Shown piece after piece: positions 1,735 to 39,245 of a stretch of 64,000 bases of DNA. The stretch is from Acidobacteriota bacterium. Its GTDB lineage: Bacteria > Acidobacteriota > UBA6911 > RPQK01 > JAJDTT01. Below the pieces are notes generated by a model, which saw only the letters and a program-made list of their open reading frames with translations, ran no database searches and was not told the DNA's origin. Position numbers and translations under genes: made by a program. Location: contig OZ242374.1 in assembly GCA_965209055.1 (NCBI GenBank), positions 800,001-864,000 of the forward strand, in the 5' to 3' direction. Position 1 is the first letter of the stretch, and every line of letters begins with the position of its first letter.

Positions 1735-1807
1735 GGAGGGGGGACATTCCTGTCCCCCTGTCTTCTCTTTTGCGGTCAGGAAGCGTACAGGGGGGACTGC
1801 CGTCCCC
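1735..1807. repeat. REP-like palindrome cluster; the second hairpin is interrupted by island 1
   Basis: GGGGGACA-TTCC-TGTCCCCC followed by GGGGGGAC-TGCC-GTCCCC; related hairpins at 30098, 39187 and 51525. Confidence 0.75.
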
Positions 1808-1825
1808 ACCACGGAAAGGATCTAT

Positions 1826-1838
1826 TAAGTATCTGATA
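1826..1838 (-). promoter_or_regulatory. IHF-like binding site in the left att arm of island 1
   Basis: Minus strand reads TATCAGATACTTA, matching WATCARNNNNTTR, 19 bp inside the att core. Confidence 0.45.
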
Positions 1839-2557
1839 ATAAAGGAGTTATGATCTATACTCCCGAGTGGGTTACGCCATTGCATCCCACCTTCTAAACG
1901 GGATTCCATTCGATCCTATTGGAGGTCCGTGGACTCCATGGACAGTTTCGCGCCTCGACTCCCAGGTTTCAAGAGCCTGCGCGCTCCGGGAATTGGGGGC
2001 GTCCATGCGGAGCCGACAGGGTCCGTTTGGCCAGGAGTTCCGGAAACGGGCCACCGATCCCGGCCATGAGAAGGAAACCCTGAGCTATTGGCAACCCTGT
2101 GCCAGCTGCCTTGGCCTCCGCGCAATGCGCGTTCCCCAGCACTGCGAGCGCTGAGGAACGGTCGCCGAGACTCTGTTGTGCTGGATGGAGTCCCAGCCCC
2201 ACGTCCGGTGTGGACGGGACATCCGCATGGTCACTGTGTGAGCGTTGCCGTCGCCAGATGGCGGCCGCGCGCTATCGGGAACGCGCCGATCGACGAGACG
2301 GGGAACTACGGCTCTATTGAGGGCCGGGGGGTGGCCATGACCCCTTAGCCAGGGATTTTTTAGTGCCAAAACACATTTCGCTCGAAACTGATCATCACAC
2401 TCTTTTCCGCGACTACTTAGTGGATCACCCCATCCAAGTCACGATCCGGAAGGGAGCAACCTGGATCGCAACAATCCTGGAGATCTCTCACCGGGATGGT
2501 GATTTCATCCTAGCCCGCGAATCAGCGAACGGATAGACTAGAGGGCAGGAGAAATAA

Positions 2558-2848
2558 ATGGCTCCAGACCTCGCCCCGTGGATCACTCCCGCCGTCGTCG
2601 TTGCGGTTCTACTCTACATGCACCGCTCTATCCGTCGGGATATGACTCAGATGGAAACGCGGTTGCGCCAAGACATGAAGGAAATGGAGTCTCGGTTCGA
2701 GACCCGGATGGACCGGATGGAGTCGCGGCTACGCGAGGACATGGAGCGCCTAGACGGGCGTGTCGCTCGGCTTGAACACGGCCAAGCCAAGCTCGAAGGG
2801 CTCTTAGAGGGCTTGCGCGAGGCCATCACCCGCCAAAACGTCGCTTGA
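2558..2848 (+). CDS. Small membrane-anchored coiled-coil protein (DUF1640/CCDC90-like)
   Basis: AGGAG RBS; N-terminal hydrophobic helix followed by repeated ME(S/T)RL heptads. Confidence 0.7.
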   Translation: MAPDLAPWITPAVVVAVLLYMHRSIRRDMTQMETRLRQDMKEMESRFETRMDRMESRLREDMERLDGRVARLEHGQAKLEGLLEGLREAITRQNVA

Positions 2849-2927
2849 GCGGCACGGTCCTGCACAAAAGGCTTCTACACCGGGTGATTCCCGAGTAATC
2901 AGCGGGCGGAAACCAACGGACTGACTG

Positions 2928-3368
2928 GTGAGCGACATCTTCGAGCGTGCCAAGCGAAGCGAGATCATGTCACGGATCCGCGGACGCGACACCAAGCCCG
3001 AATTGGTAGTGCGTCGGATCGCCCACAGGCTCGGATTCCGCTTCAGGCTCCACCGTAAGGACCTTCCCGGCAGCCCGGATATCGTATTTCCACGGTATCG
3101 GGCCATCATAATGGTGCATGGATGCTTCTGGCACCGCCATTCCGGCTGCAAGTACGCCTACACCCCGAAGACGCGAGTTCAGTTCTGGCGGAATAAGTTC
3201 GAAGGCAACGTCGTCCGGGACAGGCGGAACGAACTGGCGTTGTCTGAACGCGGCTGGAGGACGATGGTGATCTGGGAGTGCGAATCCAAGGACCACCAAG
3301 CCGTGGCTGAGCGAATTGAATCTTTTCTGCGGGAATCTACCCCGGATATGGACGGATCGACTCAGTAA
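2928..3368 (+). CDS. vsr: Very short patch repair (T/G mismatch) endonuclease
   Basis: RSEIMSRIRGRDTKPE, LPGSPDI, HGCFWHRH and WEC motifs; sits next to a C5 methyltransferase operon. Confidence 0.95.
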   Translation: MSDIFERAKRSEIMSRIRGRDTKPELVVRRIAHRLGFRFRLHRKDLPGSPDIVFPRYRAIIMVHGCFWHRHSGCKYAYTPKTRVQFWRNKFEGNVVRDRRNELALSERGWRTMVIWECESKDHQAVAERIESFLRESTPDMDGSTQ

Positions 3369-4411
3369 ACGGGCGAGCCGTCACCCGTTCGTGGGAGACA
3401 TTTCTCGCCGAAACCCTCTGGAACGCAGTTTTGCCAGCGCGCGGAGTACAACGAGCGATTGCCTATCTGTAGGCGTCCGGCGGGGAACACCAGCCGCCAC
3501 CGTGAGAACTCCGATCTCGGTAGGCGTCAGCAGTCCCTGCTCGCGGCCCCACGCGAGAGCGTGCGCCCAGAAGTCACCACCCTCGTTCAGCACCGCGATC
3601 TGGGCTTCCATGCCGTTCAGTTGGCGTTGCTCACGTCGGGCGCTCAGGGCTGCACTTCGCTGATCTTCTGCTGAAATCAGCGCGTCATCCAGTTCGGCAG
3701 GCCATCGCACAGGGATTCTGCTGGCACGGTCCCAACAGGCTTGCTTCTTGGCCCACTCCGTGACGTTGCGCATCTCTTCGGGTGGATTGGTCAGTATATG
3801 GTTGACTCGTTCCGCCACGACCGCGATGGTGCGCTTAAGCTCTGGACCCGGTGCCTGTCGATGCCAGATGCCCTCGAAATCGACGGTCTGGCCGATCTCT
3901 TTCACATGATGGCCTATTCGGGCGATTGTGTACGCGACAATGTTCGCGCGGAACCCGCCTTGGTACCACGGTTGGGCCGAGACGATGCGTTCGGTTGCCT
4001 TGAACACTATCGCCTTGGCGATAGCCTCCCGATACCAAGCCTCGTTGAAGTCGTTTGATACCCTCTTCCACGCCTGCCCGATGCGACGGGCGAAGGCTGC
4101 GAAGTTCTTCTGCGCGCCTTGGCTTACCTCGTGCGGTCTTCCCCCCCACACATTCAGGAACTTGGCGAGGTCGGTCTTTGTGAACCGCTGGCTACGCGGA
4201 TACTCAATGTCGAATTTCCTTCGTTGAGCGGTGGTCTTGTAGGCCCGGGCATCCGCGTACTGGCCGCGTGCCCGCTCGTAGAACCACTTGCTTTCCTGAA
4301 AGGTCCCGTCCGGCGACGGGGCGTACAGCCTTCGGGAGAAGTTCTCGACCCTGATGTGGAACGGGTGGTTGGCGAAGAAGTCGGAAGCCATCACACGGTT
4401 CTGGCTATTAG

Positions 4412-5601
4412 GGAAGGTCTGATTAAGTCGAGTCAGCGTTCTGCACGATAATCCCTTCATCATCACTGCGTGGGGGGAAAGACGATGTCGCAACGGACGT
4501 TCGCAGATCTGGAATACGACGCCAAGAAGCGGGTGACCCGTCGGGAGAAGTTTCTGGTCCGCATGGACGGGTTGATTCCGTGGGAGCAGTTGGAAGCCCG
4601 GATTGAGCCGTTTTACCCGAAAGCGGGACGGGGCCGGCGTCCCTACCCGCTCTCGGCGATGCTGCGGATCCACTGCGTGCAGTTGTTTTACAACCTGAGC
4701 GATCCGGGGATGGAGGATCTGCTTTACGAGGTGGAGTCGGTGCGGCGGTTCGTGGGTCTGAAGCTCACAGGGCCGCTGCCGGACGAGACGACGATTCTGA
4801 AGTTCCGTCATCGGCTGGAGGAGCATGGTCTGGGGGAGGCGCTGTTCGAGGAGATCGGTTCTCACCTGCAGCGTCAAGGCCTGCGGCTGAGCCGGGGGAC
4901 GATCGTGGACGCGAGTATCCTGGCGGCGCCTTCCTCGACGAAAAACAAGGATCGGGCGCGGGATCCGGAGATGCACCAGACGAAAAAGGGAAAACAGTGG
5001 TATTTCGGAATGAAGGCCCACCTGGGGGTGGACGCCCAGACGGGGGTGGCGCACACGGTGGTGACGGCTCCGGCCAACGAGCATGACGTGACGCGGGCCT
5101 CCGAATTGCTGCACGGCTCGGAGTCGCAAGTTTGGGGGGATTCCGGATACCAGGGAGTGCAGAAGCGGTCGGAGAATCGAGATCGGCCGGTGGATTGGCA
5201 GGTGATGATGAAGCCCGGGAAGCGTTGGCAGCTGTCGCCGGAGAGTGAGGCGGCGTTGGCCGAGCGGCGTAAGGCATCGGTACGGGCGAAGGCAGAACAT
5301 GTGTTCGGGTACCTGAAACGGCATTTCGGCTACGCCAAGGTGCGCTACCGCGGGCTGGCGAAAAACACCCAACGGATCTATCTGCTGGTGGGATTCGCCA
5401 ATCTGATGATCGCCGAGCGCTCCGGTGTGACCGCCTGATCGGAATGCGGCACGGCTGTGTTTGAGGCTGGGGAAACCGTCTCGCAATCGCTTGGTCAAGA
5501 CCAATTCAGGGTTGCAAATCCCAGGTTAGAGCGTCTGGATCCGAAAAAGGGAGGGATACAAGGTCTGTTTCGCCCCATATGAGGACTTAATCAGACCTTC
5601 C
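4412..5601 (+). mobile_element. IS5-family insertion sequence (1190 bp)
   Basis: Perfect 18-bp terminal inverted repeats GGAAGGTCTGATTAAGTC (4412-4429 / 5584-5601); 4-bp target duplication TTAG (4408-4411 / 5602-5605). Confidence 0.97.
4470..5438 (+). CDS. IS5-family DDE transposase (start may be ATG 4485)
   Basis: RDPEMHQTKKGKQWYFGMKAH, IVDAS, GDSGYQG and VRYRGLAKN motifs. Confidence 0.95.
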   Translation: MGGKTMSQRTFADLEYDAKKRVTRREKFLVRMDGLIPWEQLEARIEPFYPKAGRGRRPYPLSAMLRIHCVQLFYNLSDPGMEDLLYEVESVRRFVGLKLTGPLPDETTILKFRHRLEEHGLGEALFEEIGSHLQRQGLRLSRGTIVDASILAAPSSTKNKDRARDPEMHQTKKGKQWYFGMKAHLGVDAQTGVAHTVVTAPANEHDVTRASELLHGSESQVWGDSGYQGVQKRSENRDRPVDWQVMMKPGKRWQLSPESEAALAERRKASVRAKAEHVFGYLKRHFGYAKVRYRGLAKNTQRIYLLVGFANLMIAERSGVTA

Positions 5602-6624
5602 TTAGCATATTCCGATATCTTTGGAACAATCTCTGTTGCCCGATCGGAGTCCACCACGGAGAGCTTCATCTGCACGAAGATCTGGGAAAGATCCTCGCCT
5701 TTCCGCATTGCCGAGTGGATTGACGCAGTCGTCTGCCCGCCGTTTACGATCTGGAAGTTCGTCATCCGCTGTAGCGATAGCCGACCGCGCTCGTTGCTGA
5801 TATCGACCTGCTGGGCAGTGGCGGTAATGCCGTTATTGTACGCGAAGAACATCGTGGGCTCGTGCGCCAATGTATCCCGGATGCCCCGATTCACCTTGCT
5901 GCGGGCTTGGAGGAATACGCGGACATTCTGCTCCAGGAGCCTGGGACCCCAACGATCATAGATCTCGGAAAGGACCGAACCCGGGATAACGCTCAAATAG
6001 GACTCGTGAGCCCCTGCAATGTGCTGCGCGGGAAGCACGGCGATGGCCCCCCCGAAGTCGTTGGCGAGATCAATCTCCATGACTTCCGGTTCGCCGCTAG
6101 CGTCAGCGCGATGGAGCCGCCGCAGGTCCCAAACGCTGTAAGTGACCCGCTTGCCCTCCAAGGTTCTCGCCGGCCGGCCATCGACTCGTTCGCTGAGTTC
6201 CCGGTTGCTCACCACCACCAACCGCAACTTGCTGACGCTCGGCCATCGGTACGCGACCATGTCTGCGAGCCCGAACGCAGGACTCGTCTCTTCCAGAGCA
6301 TTCCGCCATTTGTCGTTCATCGCGTGAGTAACGAATCTCTCCATGCGCCGAAAGATCGCGTCCATCTCGCTACCGACAAGGCGCCCGCTGCGAGGCTCCG
6401 CGTTGAAATCCAGGCCGATCAAGCTCAGGGTACCGGCGGAATCAACGGGGTCACCGCCTGAGCCATCGACGCGGATTCCGCGCGTGGGGTGCCAGTACGG
6501 CGCCCGATCAGCGGTGTCGAGGTCGCCCGCTTCCACGAGGTAGGCGCATGCCTTGTCGAAAAACACGTCCTCCCGGAACTGGCGGTCCGCATCAGCTTCC
6601 GCGAGCACATCCTGCCTGAGGGCG

Positions 6625-7638
6625 TCAGCGAACTCGCGTATCGTCACCACCGTCTCCGGAAAGGCTGTTGGCCACAGCCGCCGCGTCTACACGGAATTCT
6701 TCGCACTCCGCGAGTGCGACTCGGTAACCCACCTGCGTCACCCCGGCGGGGAGCATTCGTGGCGTGATTCTAGGAAAGCCGGCGACGACCCCATAGAAGG
6801 AAGTGTTTCCGATGACCCATCGCCGGTCAGTATAGTCGTCCTCACAATCGTATCCGACCGCCCATAATCGCTCCTCGAAATCCCCACGGACGGCCATGTC
6901 GCTGGCCTCGATCAGCTGCCTAAATCGATCCACCACGTCAGTGACGGTGACAGCGCCTGCTACGTCGCCACGGTCCTCAGCGATCTCGATCACGTGCAGG
7001 AATATGGGTGTTGCGTGCGTCGAGTCTAGCTGATCCGCTGAAGCGATTCGGAGGGTGGACGCCAAGGGTGCGTGTGCCTTGCATTCCACTCCCGTAATGC
7101 CGATCTCGAAGTCCCTCTGCGCTCCAAGCGGCCCCACCCAGCTACGCACGCCTTGTCCGACTCCGATTACAGGCACAACATGCTGCTCAAGGAAAGCGAG
7201 TTCCCCGATTAACCCCTTCTGTTCCTCCACAGTGAGCCGCCCGTCTCTCCCTCCCTTGAGGAGCCGGTGCCAGCGCCACGTTCGCATGATACATGTGTCA
7301 AGGGCCTCTTGCCCCGTTTCGGCCGCTCTTACGGCATCCACGATATCGATGCAAAACCGATGGAAGATGTCCCGGTATTGGACTTCCGCCAACCGGAGGA
7401 CAAGCAACTCTCGATGCCCTTCCTCGTCCGGCTGTCTCTCGATCCGAAGGCCCCGTAGGGTCGGCCACCGATGCTGCGACCGGAGTCCCAATTCGTGTGT
7501 CACGATCAACAGGTAATGCCGCCGCCGGTCGACTGCCCAGTAGAGTCCCCACTGCGTCGATCCCACACCGGCAATTCTCATTGCGCTGAACCCTATCGGC
7601 TCAGGTGTGGCTAGATCTCTCCAGGGGTTGTCACTCAC
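6625..7638 (-). CDS. PD-(D/E)XK motif protein (DUF4420-like putative nuclease)
   Basis: GLIGEL, W.GP....DF and ECK motifs; GTG start overlaps the Z1 stop; lies between Z1 and AIPR. Confidence 0.85.
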   Translation of the reverse strand: MSDNPWRDLATPEPIGFSAMRIAGVGSTQWGLYWAVDRRRHYLLIVTHELGLRSQHRWPTLRGLRIERQPDEEGHRELLVLRLAEVQYRDIFHRFCIDIVDAVRAAETGQEALDTCIMRTWRWHRLLKGGRDGRLTVEEQKGLIGELAFLEQHVVPVIGVGQGVRSWVGPLGAQRDFEIGITGVECKAHAPLASTLRIASADQLDSTHATPIFLHVIEIAEDRGDVAGAVTVTDVVDRFRQLIEASDMAVRGDFEERLWAVGYDCEDDYTDRRWVIGNTSFYGVVAGFPRITPRMLPAGVTQVGYRVALAECEEFRVDAAAVANSLSGDGGDDTRVR

Positions 7639-10336
7639 TGTCATCTTCGTCCCAATCATCGTCGCCAAAGTGGTCCCGGAACCAGATTTCGTTCACCACG
7701 TACTCCACAGTCTCTTCTGGACCACTCGTCTTAGGGAAGCTGATGCTCCAAGCCACCACGGGGGTCTCTTCGCTAAAGTCCTTCTCTCTACTTCCGATAG
7801 CCAGCAGGTGAATGATCAGCAACGGTCGCTCGCGGATCTCCCGGTAGATTCGATCCGGATAATTCCAAGTGCTCTTGTCTCCGCGGCCGTCGCTCTCCTT
7901 TTTTGTCCTCCATCCCGCCTCTGCCGTTGCGCGCTGGAATTCAGATAGGCCCACGCGCTCCACGCCACGGCTCGCAACTCTACGTTTCCGCGCAAAGCTG
8001 ACGGTGCGAACGTCACTTCTAGATCCCGGCGCCCTTCTCTGGCAGATAACTTCAAGACCGGGCAGTTGATATACCAGCGATCCATGCATCTTTTTCTTGA
8101 TGCCAGCGAACAGCACGTCCCACCTCGCAAGCTCTGTGGCGCGGCTTGCTATGTGTTTCCTCACAGGATCCGTCTGCGTCAACGGCGATTTCGGATGGTT
8201 CTTGTACCTCACCAGAAACGCGTCGACTATCTCCACGGGTAGGTCGCGCACCAAGTGTCCTTCGGGCACATCTTGACCACGAGCTCCTCCACCATCAGAG
8301 ATCATGGCCGTCACCAGTTCCCCAACCGCCCGAAGGTTCACCTCCAGTGATGATGGATCTCTGTGCAGCACCGTTGTCTCTACAAACCTGTTCGCGAGCC
8401 CAATCTTGACTCTGTGCGTAAACCCAGTACCCATCTTGTTTCGAGCGGTTACCATGAGCGAGTCCGGATGACTACGCACCTTCAAACCGAACTCCCGTGG
8501 TGTCGCTCTAGCAATCTCCATCTGAACAAGCTCTTCTCGCAGCTCTTCGATGGACTCCGCAATATGTTCGTACCATCCGCGCGCCTCATCGGGCATCCAG
8601 ACGCGGCACAGATCGTCATAGTCATCCCGATAGCCGAACCATCGGCCCATTTGAAAGAGCGTGTCATACATCATCGAGCGGCGAAGCACGTAACTCACCG
8701 ACAGTCCTTCCAGCGTCAAACCGCGTGACAGCGAAAATCCCCCCACGGCGATAACCGTCCATCCCGAGTCTTGATACTCGGAATACATCAAGGAGTCGGG
8801 CGATTTGCTGTTTATCTCAGCAACCCGTATCGCGCCGACGACCTCGACCAAGCGGGGTTGGACCTGATCCCAGGGGACACTCGCCGAGTCGGCATACTGC
8901 TCCTCAAACGTCTGGCGCAGAGCCCGGATCTCGGGGTCACGCACCGCTTCATGCTCCGGTCGCCCTCCGTTGACTCGAATGCTTGCGGCCACTCCATCTA
9001 CGAAAGCGTGGATCTCATTGCGAATCTGCCGTTGAACCGACGTGAAGCGAGACACGTTGACGAGCATGGAATTGTGGACACTGCGCTGCCCGCGAACCAT
9101 TCTGATCGCCTTCGCCAAGAGGAAAGTGCGCACCGCTTCTCGCAGACTGCTCGGCAGACGGGTTACCTTGTGATCGATCTTGTGAGACATCGGAAGCAGG
9201 TCGCGATGGTCGTCGATCGCTTGAATCACCTGTGCTCGCCGGTCCGAAAAGACATCTTCTGCACCAAAGTAGTTCGAGGGTGCATTCAGGGACACAATAA
9301 AGTCGCGTGGAAACAGATCTTGTCCGACCAGCGAATTGTCGTCATCCGGATCAATAAGAATGTTCGCAAACGGTGTGGCGGTGTATCCGACGTAGGCGCT
9401 CCGCTCAAACAAGCTGAGCAACACCCGTATCTGACGGTTGATCGTCGATACGTTGTCCACATGGCGCTGGATGTTTATCGACGCGTTGTCAGCCTCGTCG
9501 TCGATCAGGAGCATTGGTTCCGAGATGGCATTCGCGTGCAGATGATAAGCGTTGTGCGTAGTCAGCCACTCGATGAGATTCCCGAGTATGTTTGTTTCCT
9601 TCTTTATCACCAACAGAACAGGCCTTCGCAGATCCTTTAATGGGATTCCGATCTGACTAGCTGCCAACTTGTTGAAGTCACTAACGGCGGTTGTAAACGT
9701 GATGGGCTTGCGATGCAATCCGTAGCGGCCAACCCCGATGGGCTCAAAGCCGGAGGGACCTAAGCTCCTGCCGGTGTCGTAACCGACGAAGGCCTCGTCG
9801 AGGCGCTCTTGCGTCTGATTGCGTAATCTGTTTTGTACCCCCGCGATGACGATTATTACGCGATATCCGGCATCCGCCGCCTTAGTGGCTACGCCAATGT
9901 AGTTTCCAGTCTTGCCTGATTGGACGTGCCCCATGACCATCCCCCGACGGTCCCATGACTCGGTTTTGCCAGGATCTTCCAGGTATCCGACGATCCTGTC
10001 GGTGTCCTTGTCGATCTCAGCGACTACCTGCGGCGGGAAGCCCTTCCGGTGAACAAGAAAATCCCGGTACCGATTCCAATAGTGCCAGTCTACGCTAGGC
10101 TTTCGTTCGTCGAGCCAGGGCTTGAAGGGTCGCGATAGTGCCAGCGCAGGTTTGAGCAGTATTCCAAAGGTTTCCTCTAACTTAAGGGCGAGACCCTCCG
10201 CTTCGTCGGTGGTTACAGTGGGACAGGCTGGAAGAACCTTGCCAATCAGTTCCCGGATTCGTCCGGGCGTGGGGGCGTCCTTCTCGTCTCCGACTAGGTG
10301 CCACACCAGCCGACGAAGGGTGGTCAAGTCACTCAT
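7631..10336 (-). CDS. Z1-domain SF2 helicase-like protein
   Basis: GHVQSGKT Walker A, IDDEAD, YTATPFAN, LSRGLTLEGL and DTLFQMGRWFGYR. Confidence 0.92.
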   Translation of the reverse strand: MSDLTTLRRLVWHLVGDEKDAPTPGRIRELIGKVLPACPTVTTDEAEGLALKLEETFGILLKPALALSRPFKPWLDERKPSVDWHYWNRYRDFLVHRKGFPPQVVAEIDKDTDRIVGYLEDPGKTESWDRRGMVMGHVQSGKTGNYIGVATKAADAGYRVIIVIAGVQNRLRNQTQERLDEAFVGYDTGRSLGPSGFEPIGVGRYGLHRKPITFTTAVSDFNKLAASQIGIPLKDLRRPVLLVIKKETNILGNLIEWLTTHNAYHLHANAISEPMLLIDDEADNASINIQRHVDNVSTINRQIRVLLSLFERSAYVGYTATPFANILIDPDDDNSLVGQDLFPRDFIVSLNAPSNYFGAEDVFSDRRAQVIQAIDDHRDLLPMSHKIDHKVTRLPSSLREAVRTFLLAKAIRMVRGQRSVHNSMLVNVSRFTSVQRQIRNEIHAFVDGVAASIRVNGGRPEHEAVRDPEIRALRQTFEEQYADSASVPWDQVQPRLVEVVGAIRVAEINSKSPDSLMYSEYQDSGWTVIAVGGFSLSRGLTLEGLSVSYVLRRSMMYDTLFQMGRWFGYRDDYDDLCRVWMPDEARGWYEHIAESIEELREELVQMEIARATPREFGLKVRSHPDSLMVTARNKMGTGFTHRVKIGLANRFVETTVLHRDPSSLEVNLRAVGELVTAMISDGGGARGQDVPEGHLVRDLPVEIVDAFLVRYKNHPKSPLTQTDPVRKHIASRATELARWDVLFAGIKKKMHGSLVYQLPGLEVICQRRAPGSRSDVRTVSFARKRRVASRGVERVGLSEFQRATAEAGWRTKKESDGRGDKSTWNYPDRIYREIRERPLLIIHLLAIGSREKDFSEETPVVAWSISFPKTSGPEETVEYVVNEIWFRDHFGDDDWDEDDSE

Positions 10337-11810
10337 CGTGGTCTCCGAGCACGTCTATGATGATCGGTTCCGTCTGCCGCCACTGGAAACTGAACGGCTC
10401 GGCCGATCGCATCCACTCCTTGATGGCTTGATGGGACAGACCGCGCTCTTTCAGAACTCCACACATAGTCGACACCACAAGACGCAGATCACGGATCGAC
10501 AACGGTGTGGCACGGACAGCCTCGGGGTGCGCGCTGACGTCCTGGTGAAGGGACTCAACTGGCAGCGCCGCTGCCACCAAGCGAAGAACGCGGTCGTATT
10601 GCGCTCCCAATGTTGGCGAAAGCCCTTCCCTGAGTGCTTTGATTGCCGGATAGTCGGTGGCGATGTCATAAGATATGCGGCTCTTGTTCTGTCGCCGAAT
10701 CCAAACCGGGAGACGATTGCTCGAAGCTTGTCGGGTGCCCCGACCCCGGTAGGTGCGCCGGGACCCTTCAACCATCCGCTCAACGATCTTCGCTAGGCGC
10801 TTGCGGACGGCAGGCGGGGGCTGCGCAGATGCCTTCTTGACGTCGATCTTCCATTCCGCGTCCATCGTATTCGGAATGTCGATTCCGATGCGAGCCAGCT
10901 TCGTCAGTTCTTGTTTTCGGGTAAGACGAAACCATGTACCGTGCACTATGAGGCGTCGGTTGCGGTAAAGGTAGAACCCCTGGTTACTGACATAGCCCTC
11001 AGGCCCAGCATACCGCTTCCATTCGGCAGTCGACACCTTGTCATGGTGAGGCAGAGTAACAGGGTGTATTCGAATCTCGCGGCCTCCAAGCCTCATTCTC
11101 TCTATCGGGTGATGCTGAGTCGCAGGATGGTTGGAGTGGAACGGATCGAAGGGCTCCAGTAGGTTGTCGTTCATCGACAAGCGAATCTTATGACGACCGG
11201 CCAAGAAACGATGAAACACGAACCTCAGGTGCCTTGCAGCCTCGGCCAACTGGCGCACCAAGTCGCTCCTCCCGGATGCCTCGACAAGGCGGTCGAGCTT
11301 TTCCCATACAACGAGTGTTCCGTCCGCCCGCAGACACCGCGACCAGCGTACTTCATCAACATCGCCGGGGATCTCGACCAGCCATCGATCGTTAGCGACG
11401 ACTGAATCGAGGTCCCAGCGCGCGCAGGAGATTTCGCCCTGATGTTGCGTTACGACCGTGACGCGTCGGCACTGCGAGAAAGATGCGGTCTTCAGGCCGA
11501 GACCAAATCGGCCGAGGTCGGCGTCGTCTCGTGCTTCGCGGGGGCTTCGGGTGCCCGGCCGCATTGCTTCACGCAACTGGCCCCAACTCATGCCACATCC
11601 GTTGTCCAGCACACCGATCGCCGGACGCTCGGCGTGAGTGTCTGCCAATATCTGAATCTTGCGTGCTCTGGCAGTGATTGAGTTGTCGATGACATCGGCA
11701 AGTGCGGTCTTCAGAGAGTAGCCCATGTCCCGCAGGCTCTCGATGAGGGCGGCTGGACTGGGCGCGAGCTCCAGTTCGAGCTCATGCTGTGGAGATGCCG
11801 TCTTGCTCAT
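10329..11810 (-). CDS. MORC/GHKL-family ATPase (HATPase_c_3)
   Basis: ADVIDNSI, DNGCGM, GRFGLGLKTASFS, GTLVVW and GFYLYRNRRLI. Confidence 0.92.
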   Translation of the reverse strand: MSKTASPQHELELELAPSPAALIESLRDMGYSLKTALADVIDNSITARARKIQILADTHAERPAIGVLDNGCGMSWGQLREAMRPGTRSPREARDDADLGRFGLGLKTASFSQCRRVTVVTQHQGEISCARWDLDSVVANDRWLVEIPGDVDEVRWSRCLRADGTLVVWEKLDRLVEASGRSDLVRQLAEAARHLRFVFHRFLAGRHKIRLSMNDNLLEPFDPFHSNHPATQHHPIERMRLGGREIRIHPVTLPHHDKVSTAEWKRYAGPEGYVSNQGFYLYRNRRLIVHGTWFRLTRKQELTKLARIGIDIPNTMDAEWKIDVKKASAQPPPAVRKRLAKIVERMVEGSRRTYRGRGTRQASSNRLPVWIRRQNKSRISYDIATDYPAIKALREGLSPTLGAQYDRVLRLVAAALPVESLHQDVSAHPEAVRATPLSIRDLRLVVSTMCGVLKERGLSHQAIKEWMRSAEPFSFQWRQTEPIIIDVLGDHDE

Positions 11811-13447: not shown

Positions 13448-14190
13448 GGCCTTTCCTCGACCGCAAAAGACTCGCCCGAACGCGCTAGATCGGGCACCTC
13501 GCCGCTCCACGCGGCAGACTCCAATGGTCGCTTCAAGGTAACTCCACAGCTGATCTGGCGCCCCGAGATAGTCCCGCTTGGCGGGGCTCCCAGGACTGCC
13601 CAGCCCTGCCATCGGTCTTGAGTTCCGTTAGCGCAAACGCCATCGCTTGGTATCCGCATCTTGGGTCACGATTCCATCCGACTCCAGTAGCGCGAGCATC
13701 GTTCGAGATATGTGTCCCTCGTGTCCGGCGTGTCCATCGTAGATGCCCAGTCTGCGCCCAATATCCACGTTCCGTAGTCCTTGCGCCGTGTCCCGTTCCC
13801 GGAGGAGCATCACGATTGCCGCTTTCATGTCGGCGACCGCCTTCTGAGCAATACGATAAGCCTCGTCTACTCGATCCATTCGTCCTCCTGTGCTAAGGGG
13901 TGCCACATCGGAAAGCCGATCCCGGTGGTGTCGAGGATCCGATCTGCAACGGAGCTACCCGGCATATTGCCGTGCTCCGCCACCCGCCCCCAAACAAATC
14001 CCTCGGCCAGCCCTCCTGGACCCGAGAAGAGACCGACGACCGTGACCGCCTTGTTCACAGACTGTCCTCGACCGCGATGGACTCGGCCACACGCGCGTGA
14101 TCGAGCATGACGTCTCTCCGGGTGGGAAATTTCGATGGTCGCTTCAAGGTAACTCCACAGCGGCTTGGGGGACCGAGCACGTCCCGCTTC
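13387..14190 (-). repeat. Diverged ~200-bp direct duplication of the dcm leader and first ~20 codons (13387-13580 vs 13998-14190)
   Basis: Constant 611-bp offset; identical 27-mer ATGGTCGCTTCAAGGTAACTCCACAGC at 13524-13550 and 14135-14161; the copy reads NKAVTVVGLFSGPGGLAEGF. Confidence 0.85.
13628..13879 (-). CDS. Small winged-helix-like protein upstream of dcm
   Basis: AGGAGG RBS; 83 aa with a GLRNVDIGRRLGI...ISRTMLALLESDGIV..D..KRWRL pattern resembling a wHTH. Confidence 0.65.
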   Translation of the reverse strand: MDRVDEAYRIAQKAVADMKAAIVMLLRERDTAQGLRNVDIGRRLGIYDGHAGHEGHISRTMLALLESDGIVTQDADTKRWRLR

Positions 14191-14793
14191 GTGGGAGGAT
14201 ATCGAAGGAATGGACTACCTGTCCATGGACCCGTGTCTGTTGGGGCGCGGCCCGGAACCTCCGCTGCAATTGTCCTCTCGGGCCGCCAGCAGTCGCGCTG
14301 GACTCCCGCCGGGCCGTACTCGCCTCAGCCGGTCCCGGCTACGATACCTCGACCACGCTCTGCTCATGGCGTGCCGCACACGGGCGACTCTGGAAAGCGG
14401 TGACGTAGAGGGCCGGGCCGTCGCGGTGGCATAGTGGCGCGCGCCCCGCAGGCAACTCGATCGGGCTTGGATCAACATCAGCCGCCCTTCGACTCTCCGG
14501 CTAGATTGAAACCAATTGCAGATTGAATCCGTAGAATGTTGCCTTTCGGGCCAGGCCCTGGACCGGGCGCTGGGCCTGGAGCGGACCCCGCCGCCGACCT
14601 CCACCACACGTTCCGAGTTCAGACCTTCCGGGGTTCGGTCCCGGTCCTCGTCCAAGGGGACGCCGAAAATCCACCTGCACCTGCGGACCCCAGTGGCACG
14701 TGTCGCCTGTGGTCATCCCTGGATCACGCACCATGTGTCGTGAACGGACGCCTTGCAGAACCCTAACAGGTCTTCCGGATTCTTCTCCGGGTG

Positions 14794-16690: not shown

Positions 16691-16799
16691 CACTCCCGTA
16701 CGGGCACGACACGACACTTTTCAGCGGTCAAAACCGACCTCCCGGATGCCAACTCGGACGCCAGATCCCGAAGCCGGCCGGGAGGACCACCACGGCGGC

Positions 16800-34104: not shown

Positions 34105-35559
34105 ATGCCCCGTCCCAATCTTCTGGTGCTGATGACCGATCAGCAGCGAGCCGACACCGTGGGTCCCGCCTCTCCCTGCCGGACCCCCCACCTGGACGCC
34201 CTGGCTGCTCAGGGAACCCGGTTTCTCCGTGCCTACTCTTCCAACCCCATCTGCTCGCCCAGCCGGGCGAGCCTGATGACGGGGCTCCTGCCCCACAGCC
34301 ACGGGATGGTCGACTGCACCCATACGGTGGAGCCCTATCGCGCCGACCTGAAGCCGGGACTCCCCTTCTGGAGCCGGGAGCTTCGGGGCGCCGGGTATCG
34401 CACCGGCTACTACGGGAAATGGCACATCGAGCGCTCCAATCGGCTGGAGGATTTCGGATTCGATTCGTACGAGCTGATGGAGAGCTTCGAGGCGGCCGAT
34501 GTGGGATGCCAACGGGTTCCCGACGCCGGCTACCTGGCGCGCCGCCGGAGCCTGGGACTCCCCGAATCGGATCGCCGCTGGGAACGCAAGGGGATGGTTC
34601 GCCATCCCGGATACCGGGACCTGTTGCTGCACGGCGTCGTGGACGAGCCCGTGGAGGGAACCCGCGAGCACCACGTCTTCTCGCGCGGGATCGATTTTCT
34701 GAATGAACCGGCCCGCGGCGACCAACCGTGGTGCCTCTTCCTGAGCACCGCCGGTCCTCACGATCCCTACGTCGTGCCGCGGGAATACCGTCGCCGCTAC
34801 GACGCCCGTTCCCTGATGCCTCCCCCCAGTTTCCAGGACGATCTGGCCGGCCGTCCCGCCATCTACCGGCGGATGCGGAGCGTGTGGGACCAGATGCGGT
34901 GGTCCGATTTCGCCGAGGCCACCGCCTGCTACTACGCCTTCTGTTCCCTCGTCGACGACCAGATCGGGAGGATTCTGAGGGTCCTGGAGGAGACGGGCCA
35001 GTCGGAGAATACGCTGGTGCTGTTCCTGTCGGACCACGGTGACTACATGGGAGCCCACCGTCTGATGCTCAAGGGGGTCCCCGCCTTCGAGGAGGCTTAT
35101 CGCGTGCCCCTGATCCTGAAAGGTCCCGGGGTGAATCCGGGACAGGAGGTCCCCGAGATCGTCAGTCTGCTGGACGTGGCGCCGACCCTGACGGAGCTGA
35201 CGCTGGGAGAGGACTTCTCCTGCCACGGGCGGTCGCTGCGTCCGCTGTTGGAGGGGGACGGATCCGGCTGGGACTCGGAAGCCTACGCCGAAATGCAGGG
35301 CCAGAGAATGGCGTACACGCAACGGGTTCTCTGGAGAGACAACCACAAGTACGTCTTCAATGCCTTCGACGAAGACGAGGTCTACGACCTGGAACAGGAT
35401 CCCCACGAACTGCGCAACCTGGCCGGAAGCCGCGAGTCCCTGTGCCGGGAGATGGCGGCTCGGATGTGGGAAATCGCCCGAGCCACCGGCGACTACAACC
35501 TCTACGAGTCCCAGTACGGCTGCTTCCGCTGGGCGCCCGTGGGACCGGAGGCGCGCTAG
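34105..35559 (+). CDS. Cys-type sulfatase (S1 family)
   Basis: DQQR, CSPSRASLMTG, GKWH, PHDP, SDHGD and E.YDL..DP.E..NLA. Confidence 0.93.
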   Translation: MPRPNLLVLMTDQQRADTVGPASPCRTPHLDALAAQGTRFLRAYSSNPICSPSRASLMTGLLPHSHGMVDCTHTVEPYRADLKPGLPFWSRELRGAGYRTGYYGKWHIERSNRLEDFGFDSYELMESFEAADVGCQRVPDAGYLARRRSLGLPESDRRWERKGMVRHPGYRDLLLHGVVDEPVEGTREHHVFSRGIDFLNEPARGDQPWCLFLSTAGPHDPYVVPREYRRRYDARSLMPPPSFQDDLAGRPAIYRRMRSVWDQMRWSDFAEATACYYAFCSLVDDQIGRILRVLEETGQSENTLVLFLSDHGDYMGAHRLMLKGVPAFEEAYRVPLILKGPGVNPGQEVPEIVSLLDVAPTLTELTLGEDFSCHGRSLRPLLEGDGSGWDSEAYAEMQGQRMAYTQRVLWRDNHKYVFNAFDEDEVYDLEQDPHELRNLAGSRESLCREMAARMWEIARATGDYNLYESQYGCFRWAPVGPEAR

Positions 35560-35565
35560 GAGGGG

Positions 35566-35607
35566 GGACTGTTAGTCCGACGCTCTGTCCAACTGAGCTA
35601 CGGGATT
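35566..35607 (-). pseudogene. tRNA 5' half (acceptor 5' strand, D-arm, anticodon stem) at the att end of element 2
   Basis: AATCCCG-TA-GCTC-AGTTGGACA-GAGC-G-TCGGA-CTAACAG-TCC; no T-arm or CCA follows. Confidence 0.75.
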
Positions 35608-35627
35608 GATCCTTTCCTTTCAACAGG

Positions 35628-36734
35628 TTATCCCGATGCTCCTCTCAAATCGTTCCTCCTATTTCCTCCCCGTTGCCTGTTTGTTGCCGGTCTCATTTGT
35701 GAGTCTTCGGTAGCCTGTGCCTCCCGAATGCTGGCAAGCGCATGCGAACTGACGTACCCCGCGTAGCGCATCGTCGTGCTGATCGAGGAGTGGCCCATCA
35801 GCTTCTGCACCGTCCTCACGTCCACCCCCTGCATCAGCCAATGGCTGCACCGGAATCGTCTCAGGTCGTGAAATCCGACCTTCAACCCCACCCGCTCGGT
35901 GGCCCGGCGCAACGGCTTGTCCGGATTCACCCATCTCGTGCCGGTTCGGGTGTTGACAAAGACATATGGGGTGCTCAGGTAGCGAACCAGCCCGGTCAGG
36001 TATCCTGCGGCGTACTTCGACAGCGGGATCTCCCTCGTCTCGTCGTTCTTGGTGAATTCCACCCATAGCAGCCTCCGGGATAGATCCACCCGTTTCCAGG
36101 TGAGCGACAACGCTTCGCCTTTCCGAATCCCCGTCTCGCCGATCACGGCGATCATGGCTTGCAGGTAAGGGTTGTCCATCGCCTCGACCAGGTCGCGGAA
36201 CTGTTGAACCGTCAAGGGCCGGAAGACCTTCTTGGGTTCTTTGAGTTTGGGGAATCTCACCAGCGGGTGCGTGTCCACTTCCCCGCACTCCAGCGCGTAG
36301 GAAAACAGCTTGCTGATGGCGGCAATGTCCCGGTTCACCGTGGCCGGCTGCACTTGCTTCTTTCTCCTGGCGACGTAGCGGTACAGGTCCTTGCGTTGGA
36401 ACTCCTTCAGGGGAATGTTCCCCAGCATGGCGTTGAGGCTCTTGAACGAGAGCGCATAGCGGCGGCGGGAGCGCATGCGAGGTTTGCAATACTCCTCGAA
36501 GAAACGCTCGTAGAAGCTCCGGACCGTCCAGACGGTGCGGTTCCCGCCGGCGAGCTCCTCCTTGAGCTGCTTCCAGGTGCCGTCCAGGATGCTCGACTCG
36601 ATTCGTGTTTGAAGCGCCTGTGCGCTCCGGTAGTTGGGGGCGTACATTCGGAGCCGACCGGATCCGTTCGGCCAGTACTTGCTGACGACGTACCGTCGTC
36701 TCCCCCGGCGATCCTTCACCTTGTAGATGCCCAT
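35628..36734 (-). CDS. Tyrosine recombinase/integrase, divergent from the P4-like one
   Basis: AGGAGG RBS; PATVNR, TGIRKGE, TKN, FHDLRR, LMGHSSISTTMRY. Confidence 0.93.
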   Translation of the reverse strand: MGIYKVKDRRGRRRYVVSKYWPNGSGRLRMYAPNYRSAQALQTRIESSILDGTWKQLKEELAGGNRTVWTVRSFYERFFEEYCKPRMRSRRRYALSFKSLNAMLGNIPLKEFQRKDLYRYVARRKKQVQPATVNRDIAAISKLFSYALECGEVDTHPLVRFPKLKEPKKVFRPLTVQQFRDLVEAMDNPYLQAMIAVIGETGIRKGEALSLTWKRVDLSRRLLWVEFTKNDETREIPLSKYAAGYLTGLVRYLSTPYVFVNTRTGTRWVNPDKPLRRATERVGLKVGFHDLRRFRCSHWLMQGVDVRTVQKLMGHSSISTTMRYAGYVSSHALASIREAQATEDSQMRPATNRQRGGNRRNDLRGASG

Positions 36735-36800
36735 GCATCTCCTCCTTTCTGGATCCGGGTTCTTCGCCGTGGGGCGAATCGTACCACGGCTCCAGAGAAC

Positions 36801-37880
36801 GGACCGGTGGGACCTGTCCCCCCAGACCCCCCAGTGGCGCCAGAACCCGCGCCGGATCACCATTCCGGCGCTGAACCGGGCGCTTTTATTTGTCGCGTCC
36901 CATAAGAATGGGTCCCTCGCGCAGGATTCCCGCCGCGTCTCTCGCAGGCTTCCCGGTCGGAGCAAATCTGTCCCCGGCCGAGGTGTCGCTTGAAACCCCC
37001 TCAGGCGGGAATTCTCGTGAGATCGTGAAAAAACAAGCCCGCCATCTGGCCTGTGTTGGCCCGCCGCAGCCGGACGAAGGGTTAGGTATAGGCCCCGGAG
37101 CGTCGTCCAGAAGCCTCCGGCGCGGCGCCGGGAAACAGGCAATTCTCAGCACGGGCGCAGCCCGTTAGGTAGTCCATGAGATCCGGAGCTCGGGCGATCG
37201 GCAAGACGCGATCCTGCTTCCAGAACTCAGCCTGATGGTGAAGACGGCTGACGTCATCCGATCTTCTTGAGTAGAATCTGATGGAAGTGGGTCAATCGAA
37301 AGCAGGCCAGGGAGGCAAAGCAGATGCGCTCAGACCACACCCCCCCCCCCACCATGCTCAGGATGGTCGTTGCCGTCGTCATCGGACTGATTGTGTTCGA
37401 GGTGGTGGCGGCGCTGTATCAGGTCGTCGCCGGGTTCTTTCTGGCGGCTTTCTGACGTCTTGCCGGGTTTTCGGCCCCAAGAGCAATCCAAAATCACGGC
37501 GATGGTAGCCGGTCGGGCCAAGGGTTCCACCTCGATGGCCAGGCCGACATGGAAAGCGTCCTCGGTTCTGGCGATCCAGGGGAGAAAGTAAATTGCACCG
37601 GTGGGGCTGGGGGCTTGAGAGATCGGTGGCAACACTGAACTGGAGGCAAAACGACGCACCCTGTGGGAAATCTCTGATTTTCCACACGGTGGGGAGGTTC
37701 GTTGAGACGAGGCTCGATCCCTCTTTGGAGAGTTCTTTGGTGGGTATGTGTCTCTTCGCATCCGGGGGGTTCGGGGGGGCTGGCCCCACCGCTACGAGCG
37801 TCAGGTTCACGGTCGGCTTGGTGTGCCGAACGGGGTTCAGGCGCACCAGGGGGGTCTGGGGGGACAGGTCCACCCGGTCC
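36801..37880. repeat. ~55-bp diverged inverted repeat pair (36801-36860 / 37822-37880)
   Basis: GGACCTGTCCCCCCAGACCCCC and its reverse complement GGGGGTCTGGGGGGACAGGTCC with similar flanks. Confidence 0.7.
37324..37455 (+). CDS. 43-aa hydrophobic small protein with an internal C11 tract (below the ORF-track cutoff)
   Basis: GGAGG at 37311-37315; MRSDHTPPPTMLRMVVAVVIGLIVFEVVAALYQVVAGFFLAAF; possible promoter CTGACG-18-TAGAAT. Confidence 0.55.
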   Translation: MRSDHTPPPTMLRMVVAVVIGLIVFEVVAALYQVVAGFFLAAF

Positions 37881-37897
37881 TCGGTCTTCTTCCGGGC

Positions 37898-38150
37898 CTT
37901 CCCGCAGGGAGAATTGAGACGGGAGCGACCCCCCCAGGGGGTGTTGCGCAAATGTGAATTGCGCAACGCCCCCGCGCCCGCACCGGGCAGCAAAAAGGGG
38001 GGGTCGCTCCCGTCCACCTCCATTTTCCCCGTGCGGCCACCCGGTGGCCGGGAATGGGGCCGTAACTGACTGAAAGGAAAAAAGATCGGGGAGAGTGAAT
38101 TTGTGAGTCACCGGGACCGCTTTTTGTGAATCCACCCCCTTTGTCCCATT
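37898..38150 (+). ncRNA. Conserved structured non-coding motif, copy 4 (in element 2)
   Basis: Colinear with copy 3 over ~250 nt; inner stem GGGGGTGTTGCGCA/TGCGCAACGCCCCC has a compensatory T-A pair and a T.G wobble. Confidence 0.5.
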
Positions 38151-38240
38151 CACATCCCGGATCGGGCGCGAGACCCTCTTGACGCACGCCCGAAACGAGT
38201 CACCAATAACCTTTGCGGCGGCCGAGAGTGGTCATCTCGA

Positions 38241-38480
38241 TCACAACTGACACGGAGCGATCCTCCACCGCCGGTGCGTCGCCATCCAGGAGCGCAGACC
38301 CTCGGTGACCACCGGCTCCGGAGCGACACAGACGAGGGTGGCCCTGCCGTCCTCGACGGCAATCTGCAGTTTGAACGCCAAGTAACGCCGGGTCCTCCCC
38401 ACTGCGCCATAGGGCACTTGCCGGGGATGCTGATTCTCGGGAATGGCGTCCCGTCCGAAGGGGTCTACGGACTTGTTCAT
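38241..38480 (-). CDS. Hypothetical protein (element 2 cargo)
   Basis: 79-aa ORF with a GAGGT RBS; no recognisable motif. Confidence 0.3.
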   Translation of the reverse strand: MNKSVDPFGRDAIPENQHPRQVPYGAVGRTRRYLAFKLQIAVEDGRATLVCVAPEPVVTEGLRSWMATHRRWRIAPCQL

Positions 38481-38625
38481 CCGCCGTCACCCTCGGAATG
38501 CTCTACGACATCGGATGGGAGCTACGTGAGCGTGGAGTGGACCCCCTCGACGTGCTACGGTGTCTCGAAGGTGCTCAGTAACGACCACTCAACTCAGTGG
38601 TGCAACCGAGTAAGGAGTAACCCTA

Positions 38626-38892
38626 ATGAACCCAGCCCGCGAAACAATTCCGCCCGAACGCCTTCAACAAATTGCGGCGTGGGACGGATTAGCTTCCCAA
38701 GTCGTTCTCGTGGACGTTCCGGGTCGGGGACTGGTTCCCAAACTGAGGTTGTGGTTTCAGTTCCGACGACTCGGACCACCGCCTCCGGGTAACGGGCCAA
38801 CCATTCACCAAGAAGCAGTTGTCGGTCTGGAATTTGCGCAGAGGATGGTGGACCACATATCGAGTGCAATTGCCGACGCGAAGCAGCGTTGA
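38626..38892 (+). CDS. Hypothetical protein (element 2 cargo)
   Basis: 88-aa ORF with a TAAGGAG RBS and protein-like composition. Confidence 0.45.
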   Translation: MNPARETIPPERLQQIAAWDGLASQVVLVDVPGRGLVPKLRLWFQFRRLGPPPPGNGPTIHQEAVVGLEFAQRMVDHISSAIADAKQR

Positions 38893-39107
38893 CGTTCACG
38901 GAGCCGCACTTGGGGCAGTTGATACGGAAGGGAGAAAAAGGGCGCGCCGGCTTTCAGGAGCCGATTCGGCTGCCTGTCTGTTGCCTGTTCAGCATGTCAA
39001 ACATAGGGAGTCAACCACCTTACCGATTCGGCGAAGAACCCGGTAAATCACTGTAAACGTTAATGTTCGGTAGTCTTTGACTTTGGGACAGTTGGGACTG
39101 TTAGTCC

Positions 39108-39245
39108 CCCTCTGCGGCGACTTTCCTGTCGCCCACTGGGACAGGCAACTATCTTGTCGCTTGGTCTTCTTGCCGGAAAGTGTAAAGGGGGGACTACCGT
39201 CCCCCCTCCCCCCCCTGTCGGCGGTTGGAAACCGCCGCTCCAAGT
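39108..39245. repeat. Intact REP-like composite cluster; a model of the unoccupied target of island 1
   Basis: GGCGAC/GTCGCC hairpin, GGGGGGAC-TACC-GTCCCCCC, C-tract, then CGGCGGTTGGAAACCGCCGCTCC. Confidence 0.75.

Follow-up and report, generated by a model that had tools for sequence, protein, structure and literature searches.

This locus raises the question whether tyrosine integrases, which usually are regarded as enzymes with a single target site, either in a tRNA gene or in one of a few conserved genes, can also use abundant intergenic repeats as their attachment sites. The window, that is the whole stretch of 64,000 nucleotides analyzed in this study, comprises positions 800001-864000 of the complete 6,077,182-bp genome of an Acidobacteriota bacterium (contig OZ242374.1; 62.8% G+C; genome G000 in the following). 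It contains two divergent integrase elements, island 1 (1798-18193) and element 2 (35565-39107), and no tRNA or tmRNA gene was called in it by ARAGORN. Both features very likely are integrative elements moved by their own tyrosine integrases, whose bacterial attachment sites (attB) are hairpins resembling repetitive extragenic palindromic (REP) sequences rather than tRNA genes. They represent two ordinary integrase lineages, one P4-like and one derived from tRNA-Arg islands, that were retargeted independently of each other, and not one new class of element.

Both elements are bounded by parts of REP-like hairpins

A sequence-only reading of the window had named TGCCGTCCCC (1798 and 18184) as the boundary repeat of island 1 and GGGACTGTTAGTCC (35565 and 39094) as that of element 2. 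Both pairs of repeats were found at these positions and nowhere else in the window; two matches to GGGACTGTTAGTCC occurred in none of 100 shuffled sequences, and two or more matches to TGCCGTCCCC in 4 of 100. The hairpin stems holding both repeats are GGGGGGAC / GTCCCCCC. Hairpins of the pattern GGGGGAC-N2-9-GTCCCCC were observed four times in the window versus 0.04 expected, and the strict pattern is present in 87 copies in the 6.08-Mb genome versus one in a shuffled genome. By the strict pattern, the genome also contains 13 composite REP doublets. Short imperfect palindromes that are present in tens to hundreds of copies and often clustered, as found here, are what is classified as REP or REPIN (REP doublet forming hairpins) sequences. 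All REP sites that were inspected are located between genes or at gene ends.

The left junction of island 1 consists of the left part of a composite REP, which ends in the attL core TGCCGTCCCC (1770-1807, core 1798-1807), and the right junction of the attR core TGCCGTCCCC and the right part of the REP (18184-18250, core 18184-18193) with a run of 25 C (18198-18222) and a second hairpin, CGGCGGT..ACCGCCG. The empty site reconstructed from both flanks was identical to the intact cluster at 39170-39241 in 63 of 94 columns, with gaps mostly due to the expanded poly-C run, which bears out the earlier claim that the joined flanks match a REP cluster near 39175-39241. This cluster includes an unoccupied composite REP (39186-39241) of the same type as the island 1 target, with hairpin, poly-C and second hairpin; six intact and unoccupied hairpins of the island-1 type are found in the genome. 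In 13 other copies the poly-C spacer has a length of about 5-8 C, compared with the 25 C at 18198-18222, and the run beside the island 1 junction looks like a slippage expansion. Element 2 starts with the left half of its target hairpin and the attL core GGGACTGTTAGTCC (35560-35578, core 35565-35578; supported by sequence, pattern count and family comparison) and ends with the attR core GGGACTGTTAGTCC and the right half of the hairpin (39094-39113, core 39094-39107; sequence and family comparison).

Both elements encode an intact tyrosine recombinase with catalytic residues and a PF00589 match above the cut-off. The integrase of island 1, int1 (16800-18035, minus strand, 411 aa), has the P4-type set of Arm-DNA-bind_3, central Phage_int_M and catalytic domains (PF13356, E = 5.2e-18; PF22022, E = 4.4e-25; PF00589, E = 1.1e-12), and matched the model NF007246 below the cut-off of that model. 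Its catalytic residues were read by eye in the motifs HGFRSSFRDW and AAYRR. The integrase of element 2, int2 (35628-36737, minus strand; PF00589, E = 8.2e-28), comprises 369 aa from an ATG that follows the ribosome-binding motif GGAGGAG; its open frame extends to 37142, and conservation within the family begins near 36799. It matched 5c6k_A with E = 5e-17, and the catalytic R (GIRKGE), HDLRR, GH and the tyrosine (MRYAG) are in conserved positions.

Copies of element 2 are found at many REP sites

Copies of both elements within G000 were located by blastn and tblastn. Ends of the element-2 type were found 29 times on the left and 30 times on the right, where the conserved right-end segment (38924-39093 in the window) was recovered, and gave 25 paired elements of 2.7-25 kb. 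They fall into four core types, A to D, each matching a different REP-like hairpin, with A and B being the same REP in opposite orientations. Seven elements, including element 2, are of type A and ten of type B; the type C hairpin is GGGCGATT..AATCGCCC and the type D hairpin GTGGGGGT..ACCCCCAC. The 14-bp cores at both ends were identical (14/14) in 15 A/B pairs as aligned, and two more type B pairs were extracted 2 nt out of register. Since type D junctions differ at positions on either side of the central 7 bp, strand exchange seems to be confined to 7 bp at the hairpin loop. Seven bp is the usual overlap length of tyrosine recombinases. All reconstructed empty sites fold as hairpins, with energies of -12 to -37 kcal/mol.

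Beyond the REP, the flanks differ among the 25 paired elements, and none of the 29 left ends in G000 adjoins a tRNA 3' half. Identity of 100% was found between two type B elements, over 2796 bp, and between two type D elements, over 9372 and 1165 bp; in both cases the flanks are unrelated and the identity stops at the cores. These identical copies at unrelated sites reflect recent movement. Most integrase frames in G000 are open, and in relatives several copies contain stop codons.

Across nine genomes of the genus the copy number of the element-2-type left end was 28, 13, 6, 3, 2, 1, 1, 1, and 0. From six other genomes of the genus, 20 junctions were fetched, of which 19 consist of a decayed tRNA half followed by a REP half-hairpin. 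The remaining one, in G003, has an intact tRNA-Arg. The 19 junctions added at least seven further core variants, and several core variants differ from the anticodon loop of tRNA-Arg by single-base steps. In a tree of 25 copies of the element-2-type integrase, types A and B separate from C and D (support 99/96) and are intermixed within their own clade; the split follows the type of the target arm.

The element-2 family and tRNA-Arg islands

A decayed 5' half of a tRNA-Arg gene, comprising the acceptor 5' strand, D arm and anticodon-stem 5' strand, is located just 3' of int2 and ends at the core (35574-35612, minus strand). It is identical to the tRNA-Arg(TCG) of G000 in 28 of 31 positions and is present on the int2 strand in all copies. 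This half was called by neither ARAGORN nor Rfam. Rfam gave no match in the whole window at gathering thresholds and none in the region 35500-39300 up to E = 5, which places the tRNA-like half and the structured module described below outside the curated Rfam families.

A search with int2 in 301 genomes of the phylum matched 17 of them at E <= 1e-30, and in 16 of the 22 loci inspected a tRNA gene follows the integrase gene. Most homologs with 30-53% identity to int2 show the usual arrangement, in which integrase and tRNA genes are on opposite strands. In the homologs with 71-82% identity, found in one genome each of the same genus, family and order, the integrase gene and an intact tRNA-Arg after it have the same orientation, and the 5' end of the tRNA gene faces the integrase gene. 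The sequence-only reading had considered that homologs might sit almost only in tRNA genes; more distant homologs do adjoin tRNA genes (16 of 22 loci), whereas within the genus the outcome favors REPs.

In G003 the same strand carries, at a distance of 47 kb, a displaced 5' fragment of the tRNA-Arg with 100% identity over positions 1-42, and this island therefore is of the "5' fragment" type. It combines the intact tDNA, displaced fragment and integrase of the Islander definition, of which the window elements retain only the decayed 5' half. The integrase flank and tRNA half of the window can be aligned to the integrase flank and tRNA-Arg of G003 with 67 of 88 positions identical, and the homology stops in the anticodon loop. 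Judged from these sequence comparisons, the element-2 family descends from tRNA-Arg islands.

The island-1 family

The genome contains 16 full-length int1-type copies, six at 82-100% amino acid identity and ten at about 64%. Five of the six close copies share junctions inside the same composite REP (hairpin, poly-C, second hairpin), and this composite REP held the same core at five ends on each side, out of six right and seven left ends. The use of REPs as multi-copy attB sites by tyrosine integrases, as proposed from the window, is thus supported by these five copies, by the 25 paired elements of the element-2 type, by 19 of the 20 junctions within the genus, and by the empty sites of island 1 in relatives. 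A left-end segment (1808-2051) recurs with 77-94% identity at six other places (blastn), and the integrase-proximal arm (18036-18183) is conserved in six right ends. Its reiterated ATCC-type short repeats may be arm-type sites. Over 3238 bp, the copies located at 1.06 and 2.97 Mb share 98.5% identity, and their flanks are unrelated. Minimal int1-type elements have a size of 3.2 kb. At 2970700-2976900 of G000 a minimal island-1-type and a minimal element-2-type element are arranged back to back in two adjacent hairpins of one array. In these two neighbors at 2.97 Mb, with sizes of 3.2 and 2.7 kb, no Pfam family beyond the integrase was found among 10 open reading frames (ORFs).

In the same 301 genomes, 27 were matched by int1 at E <= 1e-40, and 25 upstream contexts were inspected. 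Homologs with 87-100% identity in G001 and G004 are located at REP hairpins in both orientations. A CCTTCCCGC-type palindrome is the target of one homolog in G004, one homolog with 66% identity, and 5 of 10 subfamily-II copies in G000. Homologs at 66-67% identity in two other families adjoin the 3' end of one protein gene, and those at <=46% identity adjoin tmRNA or tRNA 3' ends. Among the 25 contexts ARAGORN called one tRNA, and two more tRNA/tmRNA 3' ends were recognized by eye; none of the three is next to a homolog with more than 46% identity. P4-like integrases of G000 with about 30% identity to int1 are located beside tRNA-Ala, tRNA-Ile, tRNA-Phe, tRNA-Leu, and tmRNA genes. Island 1 is not inserted at a tRNA/tmRNA 3' end, the typical site of P4-like integrases. 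Hence, with REPs next to the near homologs and tRNA/tmRNA genes next to the distant ones, the switch to palindromic repeats is derived in this family as well.

Two observations concern the P4-like integrases of G000 in general. Five int1-type subfamily-II copies (68153, 580081, 2485161, 3838725, and 4968583) have an upstream flank (GTGGTGAAAGTCCCGCGAGCACC...) that is conserved over more than 100 nt, and therefore are located inside a larger repeated unit. ARAGORN called seven tRNA-Leu(TAA) genes in this genome, at least three of which adjoin classical P4-like integrase genes; islands may carry the extra copies.

Empty sites and segmental duplication

Empty sites in relatives had been predicted for both elements. 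For island 1 the prediction held. Its flanking genes are adjacent in three genomes of the genus: in G001 the intervening stretch of about 130 bp comprises hairpin, poly-C and second hairpin, with the predicted hairpin and loop exact; in G006 an intact, slightly diverged composite REP is found at the site; and in G007 the two genes abut without a REP. In G004 the orthologous site is filled by 2.4 kb of REP arrays. These arrays (3804100-3806800 of G004) are composed of tandem units of some 190 bp, each with three different REP hairpins.

For element 2 the prediction was not confirmed, as the exact empty site was not found and the flanks are not neighbors in any of the five same-genus genomes that were compared for synteny. 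In G004 an intact hairpin belonging to the same family is found after the sulfatase ortholog of the left flank, and in G006 the same post-sulfatase hairpin holds an element end in the opposite orientation. Window positions 1-35550 are a 94-98% segmental duplicate of positions 181658-204967 of G000, and the left junction of element 2 marks the precise end of the 35.5-kb duplication. With flanks that are not adjacent in relatives and a left junction that coincides with the duplication boundary, this copy is located at a rearrangement breakpoint. Both junctions of element 2 are spanned by contigs of the Logan collection, derived from four runs of one sample (0.77-0.78 of sampled words), which may share their source with the assembly.

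The duplicate region at 183 kb holds its own minimal island-1-type element in the same REP, so that the 12.5-kb cargo (2061-14549) is extra in the window copy. Adjacent to element 2 (35557-35578), the REP supplies the TAG stop codon (35557-35559) of the sulfatase gene and changes the last residues of the protein relative to the paralog and the orthologs; the extended palindrome has TAG / CTA at its ends. The paralogous sulfatase gene in the duplicate ends without a REP, as in most relatives.

Proposed mechanism and alternative explanations

Both families probably moved by conservative site-specific recombination carried out by the tyrosine integrase of each element. The two arms of the hairpin stem would act as inverted core-type binding sites, and the loop with 1-2 bases on each side would form the overlap of about 7 bp for strand exchange, presumably between double-stranded substrates. 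Such a site would have the geometry of the stem-loops that integrases of this kind usually target, namely the anticodon or T stem-loop of a tRNA. The ancestor of element 2 probably inserted in the anticodon loop of tRNA-Arg in the 5' fragment orientation, in which the element supplies the 5' half. This tRNA 5' half would have been retained as a fossil in the attachment site of the element (attP), and overlap and distal arm would have changed toward REP variants. The island-1 family probably made the same kind of switch independently, starting from a P4-like lineage. Because the targets are multi-copy, the elements would behave like site-specific insertion sequences (IS), with proliferation within the genome, mutual nesting, pickup of cargo, and presence at rearrangement breakpoints as expected consequences.

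Alternatively, the integrases could be tRNA-specific and the REP insertions rare secondary-site accidents that resemble the tRNA target. The tRNA genes beside distant int2 homologs (16 of 22 loci), the tRNA and tmRNA genes beside the approximately 30% identical int1 homologs of G000, and the one same-genus copy in G003 that still is at tRNA-Arg would fit this explanation. We nevertheless consider it exceedingly improbable, because the element-borne core matches the REP and not tRNA-Arg (14/14 in the 15 A/B pairs in register), not one left end in G000 adjoins a tRNA 3' half, 19 of the 20 junctions in the six other genomes are at REPs, and core variants track REP variants, with the integrase clades following. 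It is very unlikely that, conversely, the hairpins are products of the elements, either terminal sequences or footprints, and that REPs spread by element movement. Conservative recombination regenerates the target without creating a new hairpin, the orthologous empty site in G001 and G006 holds an intact hairpin, and G001 is rich in REPs, which are spread genome-wide, yet no element-2-type left end was found in it. Moreover, the GGGGGAC/GTCCCCC family comprises at least 87 hairpins with some 40 different loops, most of which are matched by no element core, and type C hairpins are unoccupied in 79 cases versus 6 occupied. What would suit such an origin are the half hairpin at each junction with ends resembling inverted repeats, the occupation of two thirds of the A/B hairpins (17 versus 8 unoccupied), and the REP-associated Y1 transposase (RAYT, PF01797), which is not evident in the genome beyond two weak matches (30.8 and 23.6 bits, cut-off 23).

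Recognition of a folded single-stranded hairpin, as for integron attC sites or CTX phage with XerCD, followed by completion of the insertion by replication, would be in line with the perfect or near-perfect palindromes, their short loops and their folding energies, and the increase in copy number would be easier to explain with a replicative step. Excerpts of one account describe a hybrid single-/double-strand mechanism for integron integrases (PMC4792948). However, int1 and int2 are of common phage or island types with relatives that act on duplex tRNA genes, the arms are exchanged reciprocally around a 7-bp overlap as in the classical duplex pathway, and for int2 the integron-integrase model gave 61.6 bits, far below its cut-off of 265, so that we regard this route as unlikely. 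Finally, the elements could be dead relics whose copies result from segmental duplication and homologous recombination. The duplicate of window positions 1-35550 with its own island-1-type element in the same REP, the synteny break at element 2, and the integrase copies with stop codons in relatives are compatible with this, and still there is very little to be said for it: outside the REP, the 25 paired elements have different flanks, the identity of the 100% identical copies stops at the cores, most integrase frames in G000 are open, and presence or absence differs at single sites between species.

Recombination at REP hairpins by the integrases of the elements, our preferred explanation, also has to account for several less favorable observations. 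Inverted symmetry around the core is poor in the island 1 attP, where GGAC..GTCC with a longer spacer was read by eye. The 10-bp repeat TGCCGTCCCC is without significance by itself, given its 4 of 100 shuffles. Island 1 and the 183-kb copy are one event duplicated together with its flanks, and the number of independent insertions with the island 1 core therefore is four instead of five. Regarding element 2, the non-syntenic flanks and the duplication boundary allow that this copy may be a recombinant of two insertions. Neither a circle junction nor an empty-site joint of element 2 was found in the Logan contigs; this absence of an excision product is uninformative rather than negative, because contigs drop rare forms. 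By Pfam no excisionase or other accessory gene was recognized in the minimal elements.

A further-reaching interpretation, to which we assign about an even chance, is that the elements constitute tyrosine-recombinase "insertion sequences": integrase-only units of 2.7-3.2 kb that copy among REP hairpins, carry cargo of up to about 20 kb, and arose when REP hairpins, as mimics of tRNA stem-loops, captured tRNA-specific integrases, with natural retargeting via the 7-bp overlap and one attP arm. The integrases serving the core variants, at least 10 in number, are 82-97% identical. If the interpretation is true, the family provides a ready-made natural series on the reprogramming of integrase specificity. 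No match to int2 was obtained in plasmid and phage collections at E <= 1e-20, and no vehicle for intercellular transfer was identified there.

Relation to known systems

Element 2 is most similar to anticodon-centered tRNA islands with a displaced 5' fragment, an arrangement reportedly described as 'reversed target orientation' by Zhao and Williams in 2002. Its homologs with 71-82% identity are at tRNA-Arg with the crossover in the anticodon loop, and the order of integrase gene and tRNA 5' half is the same. In contrast to these islands, the partner in the window is a REP hairpin, the tRNA half is decayed and no tRNA is regenerated, and up to 28 copies per genome are present instead of one per tRNA gene. 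Excerpts of the Islander account give 159 islands with a 5' fragment versus 3760 with a 3' fragment, and 2083 with an anticodon-centered attP (PMC4383910). Island 1 shares with P4-like tRNA/tmRNA islands the arm-binding, central and catalytic domains of the integrase and the defense cargo, and the start of int1 is about 150 bp from the attachment site, as in the G000 islands next to tmRNA and tRNA genes. It differs from them in its target, which is a composite REP or, in the second subfamily, the CCTTCCCGC-type palindrome, in the 16 copies within one genome, and in the minimal forms of 3.2 kb with the integrase as the only recognizable gene.

Targeting of REPs is known from IS of the IS3 and IS110 families, e.g. 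ISPsy8 of the former, as described in excerpts of PMC1525189, in which the word 'tyrosine' does not occur. Further accounts concern the same kind of targeting (PMC11208160; bioRxiv 10.64898/2026.03.19.712850). The IS named are ISPsy8 and, from the sequence-only reading, IS1397 for the IS3 family, and ISPa11, ISPpu9, ISPpu10 and IS621 for the IS110 family. Like our elements they are multi-copy and insert site-specifically into REPs as abundant and safe intergenic landing sites. However, these IS rely on DDE or DEDD transposases, in the IS110 family with a bridge RNA, whereas tyrosine recombinases, attP and attB sites, and cargo of up to 25 kb are found here; the tyrosine integrase is the only recognizable gene of the minimal elements, which contain no DDE/DEDD mobility enzyme. 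Filamentous prophages Nf and MDA of Neisseria insert into dRS3 repeats via an IS110-type transposase, according to a part of PMC7058167. They resemble our elements in carrying cargo to a short, abundant and partly palindromic intergenic repeat with sites varying between strains, and differ in being phages with an IS110-type enzyme and no tRNA ancestry. Integrons also combine a tyrosine recombinase with multi-copy, hairpin-forming palindromic sites. In contrast to the elements studied here, their integrase IntI recombines folded single strands and has a specific extra domain; no cassette array was found, and in addition to the low score of int2 mentioned above, a second integron-integrase model gave 28.4 bits with a cut-off of 435.

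In excerpts of PMC1762012, a changed attP core directed the integrase of mycobacteriophage Ms6 to different tRNA-Ala T-loops. This is a laboratory precedent for the natural diversification of cores observed here, although the Ms6 system was engineered and involves tRNA genes only and no REPs. A survey with TIGER/Islander found 22.8% of 1.75 million islands to be intergenic and does not mention REPs (PMC12424338). No description of tyrosine integrases with REPs as attB was found in the literature searched, the coverage of which was incomplete, and an earlier description may exist. The new aspect is the retargeting of site-specific integrases from tRNA stem-loops to REP hairpins, with preserved intermediates and IS-like proliferation. 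Two lineages moved independently to abundant REP hairpins and multiplied like IS, to about 28 and 16 copies in one 6-Mb genome. As an intact tRNA-Arg target in one species and the fossil tRNA half with REP cores in relatives have been kept, the change of target can be traced base by base. Closely related integrases serve many core variants and so provide naturally occurring data on overlap and arm specificity, with relevance to integrase design. REPs in turn would be landing pads for cargo islands, including a defense cluster, and breakpoints for duplication and rearrangement.

A structured module common to both families

A structured non-coding module is present in element 2 (37895-38226, plus strand, core 37900-38035) and in three copies in island 1, as judged from blastn copies and the predicted fold. 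Copy 1 is located at 14794-15065 (plus strand) and copy 3 directly 3' of the int1 gene (16435-16712, plus strand). Copy 2 (15552-15691) is followed by an int1-type 3' remnant on the minus strand (15917-16129; tblastn, blastn), which corresponds to int1 residues 341-411 with 78.9% identity; the region 15552-16173 is a relic of an earlier tandem or nested element. The genome contains 62 copies of the module, in which an 18-bp outer stem with a few compensatory pairs encloses two hairpins. In 13 of 16 int1-type genes it is found in either orientation within 420 nt after the stop codon, and it ends in the CCTTCCCGC half-palindrome, which is the junction used by subfamily-II elements.

This common motif had led the sequence-only reading to suggest an undescribed class of mobile element. 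That suggestion had to be given up, since the two integrases belong to separate lineages and the module belongs to the P4-like integrase gene as its structured 3' flank and presumably reached the other family by nesting and recombination. Subfamily-II P4-like elements are nested in three large element-2-type elements, which explains why the module is common to both families; a single class defined by the module was rejected on these grounds. The module may represent an attP arm, an origin of transfer or replication, or an RNA. More daring, and less probable, is the further suggestion that the conserved Y-shaped module serves as a cis-acting cofactor of recombination or transfer, in the form of structured DNA or RNA.

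Two 85-nt tRNA-Val genes called by ARAGORN in G000 (3841235-3841319 and 5203736-5203820) coincide with module copies, and both calls probably are false. The module itself was dismissed as a tRNA, because it folds into a long stem with two hairpins and not into a cloverleaf.

Cargo and other features

Besides the occupied sites, an unoccupied REP-like hairpin with a GGGGGAC / GTCCCCC stem and a 6-nt loop was found by pattern match in the left flank of island 1 (1739-1758). Element 2 contains two small predicted ORFs on the minus strand (38241-38480, 79 aa, and 38594-38899, 101 aa). Three small ORFs of element 2, including these two, and three unassigned small ORFs of island 1 matched no Pfam family, and the 79-aa ORF had no usable match in the protein atlas.

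The cargo of island 1 begins with a gene for a Vsr mismatch endonuclease (2928-3368, plus strand; PF03852, E = 1.5e-30). It is followed on the minus strand by an AIPR abortive-infection-type gene in two pieces (3381-6650) and by genes with domain matches to DUF4420 (6625-7668), Z1 (7631-10336), HATPase_c_3 (10329-11810) and C-5 cytosine methylases (11807-13612). Taken together, these genes look like a methylase-associated defense cluster. The N-terminal piece of the AIPR gene is located at 5526-6650 and the C-terminal piece below approximately 4401, with profile positions 1-111 and 112-308 in separate ORFs. The gene is split by a 1.2-kb IS (4402-5605, plus strand) with a DDE transposase ORF (4470-5438; PF01609, E = 1.9e-28; PF05598, DUF772). 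This IS is a passenger unrelated to the mobility of the island, and 23 other copies with 93-100% identity are present in the genome.

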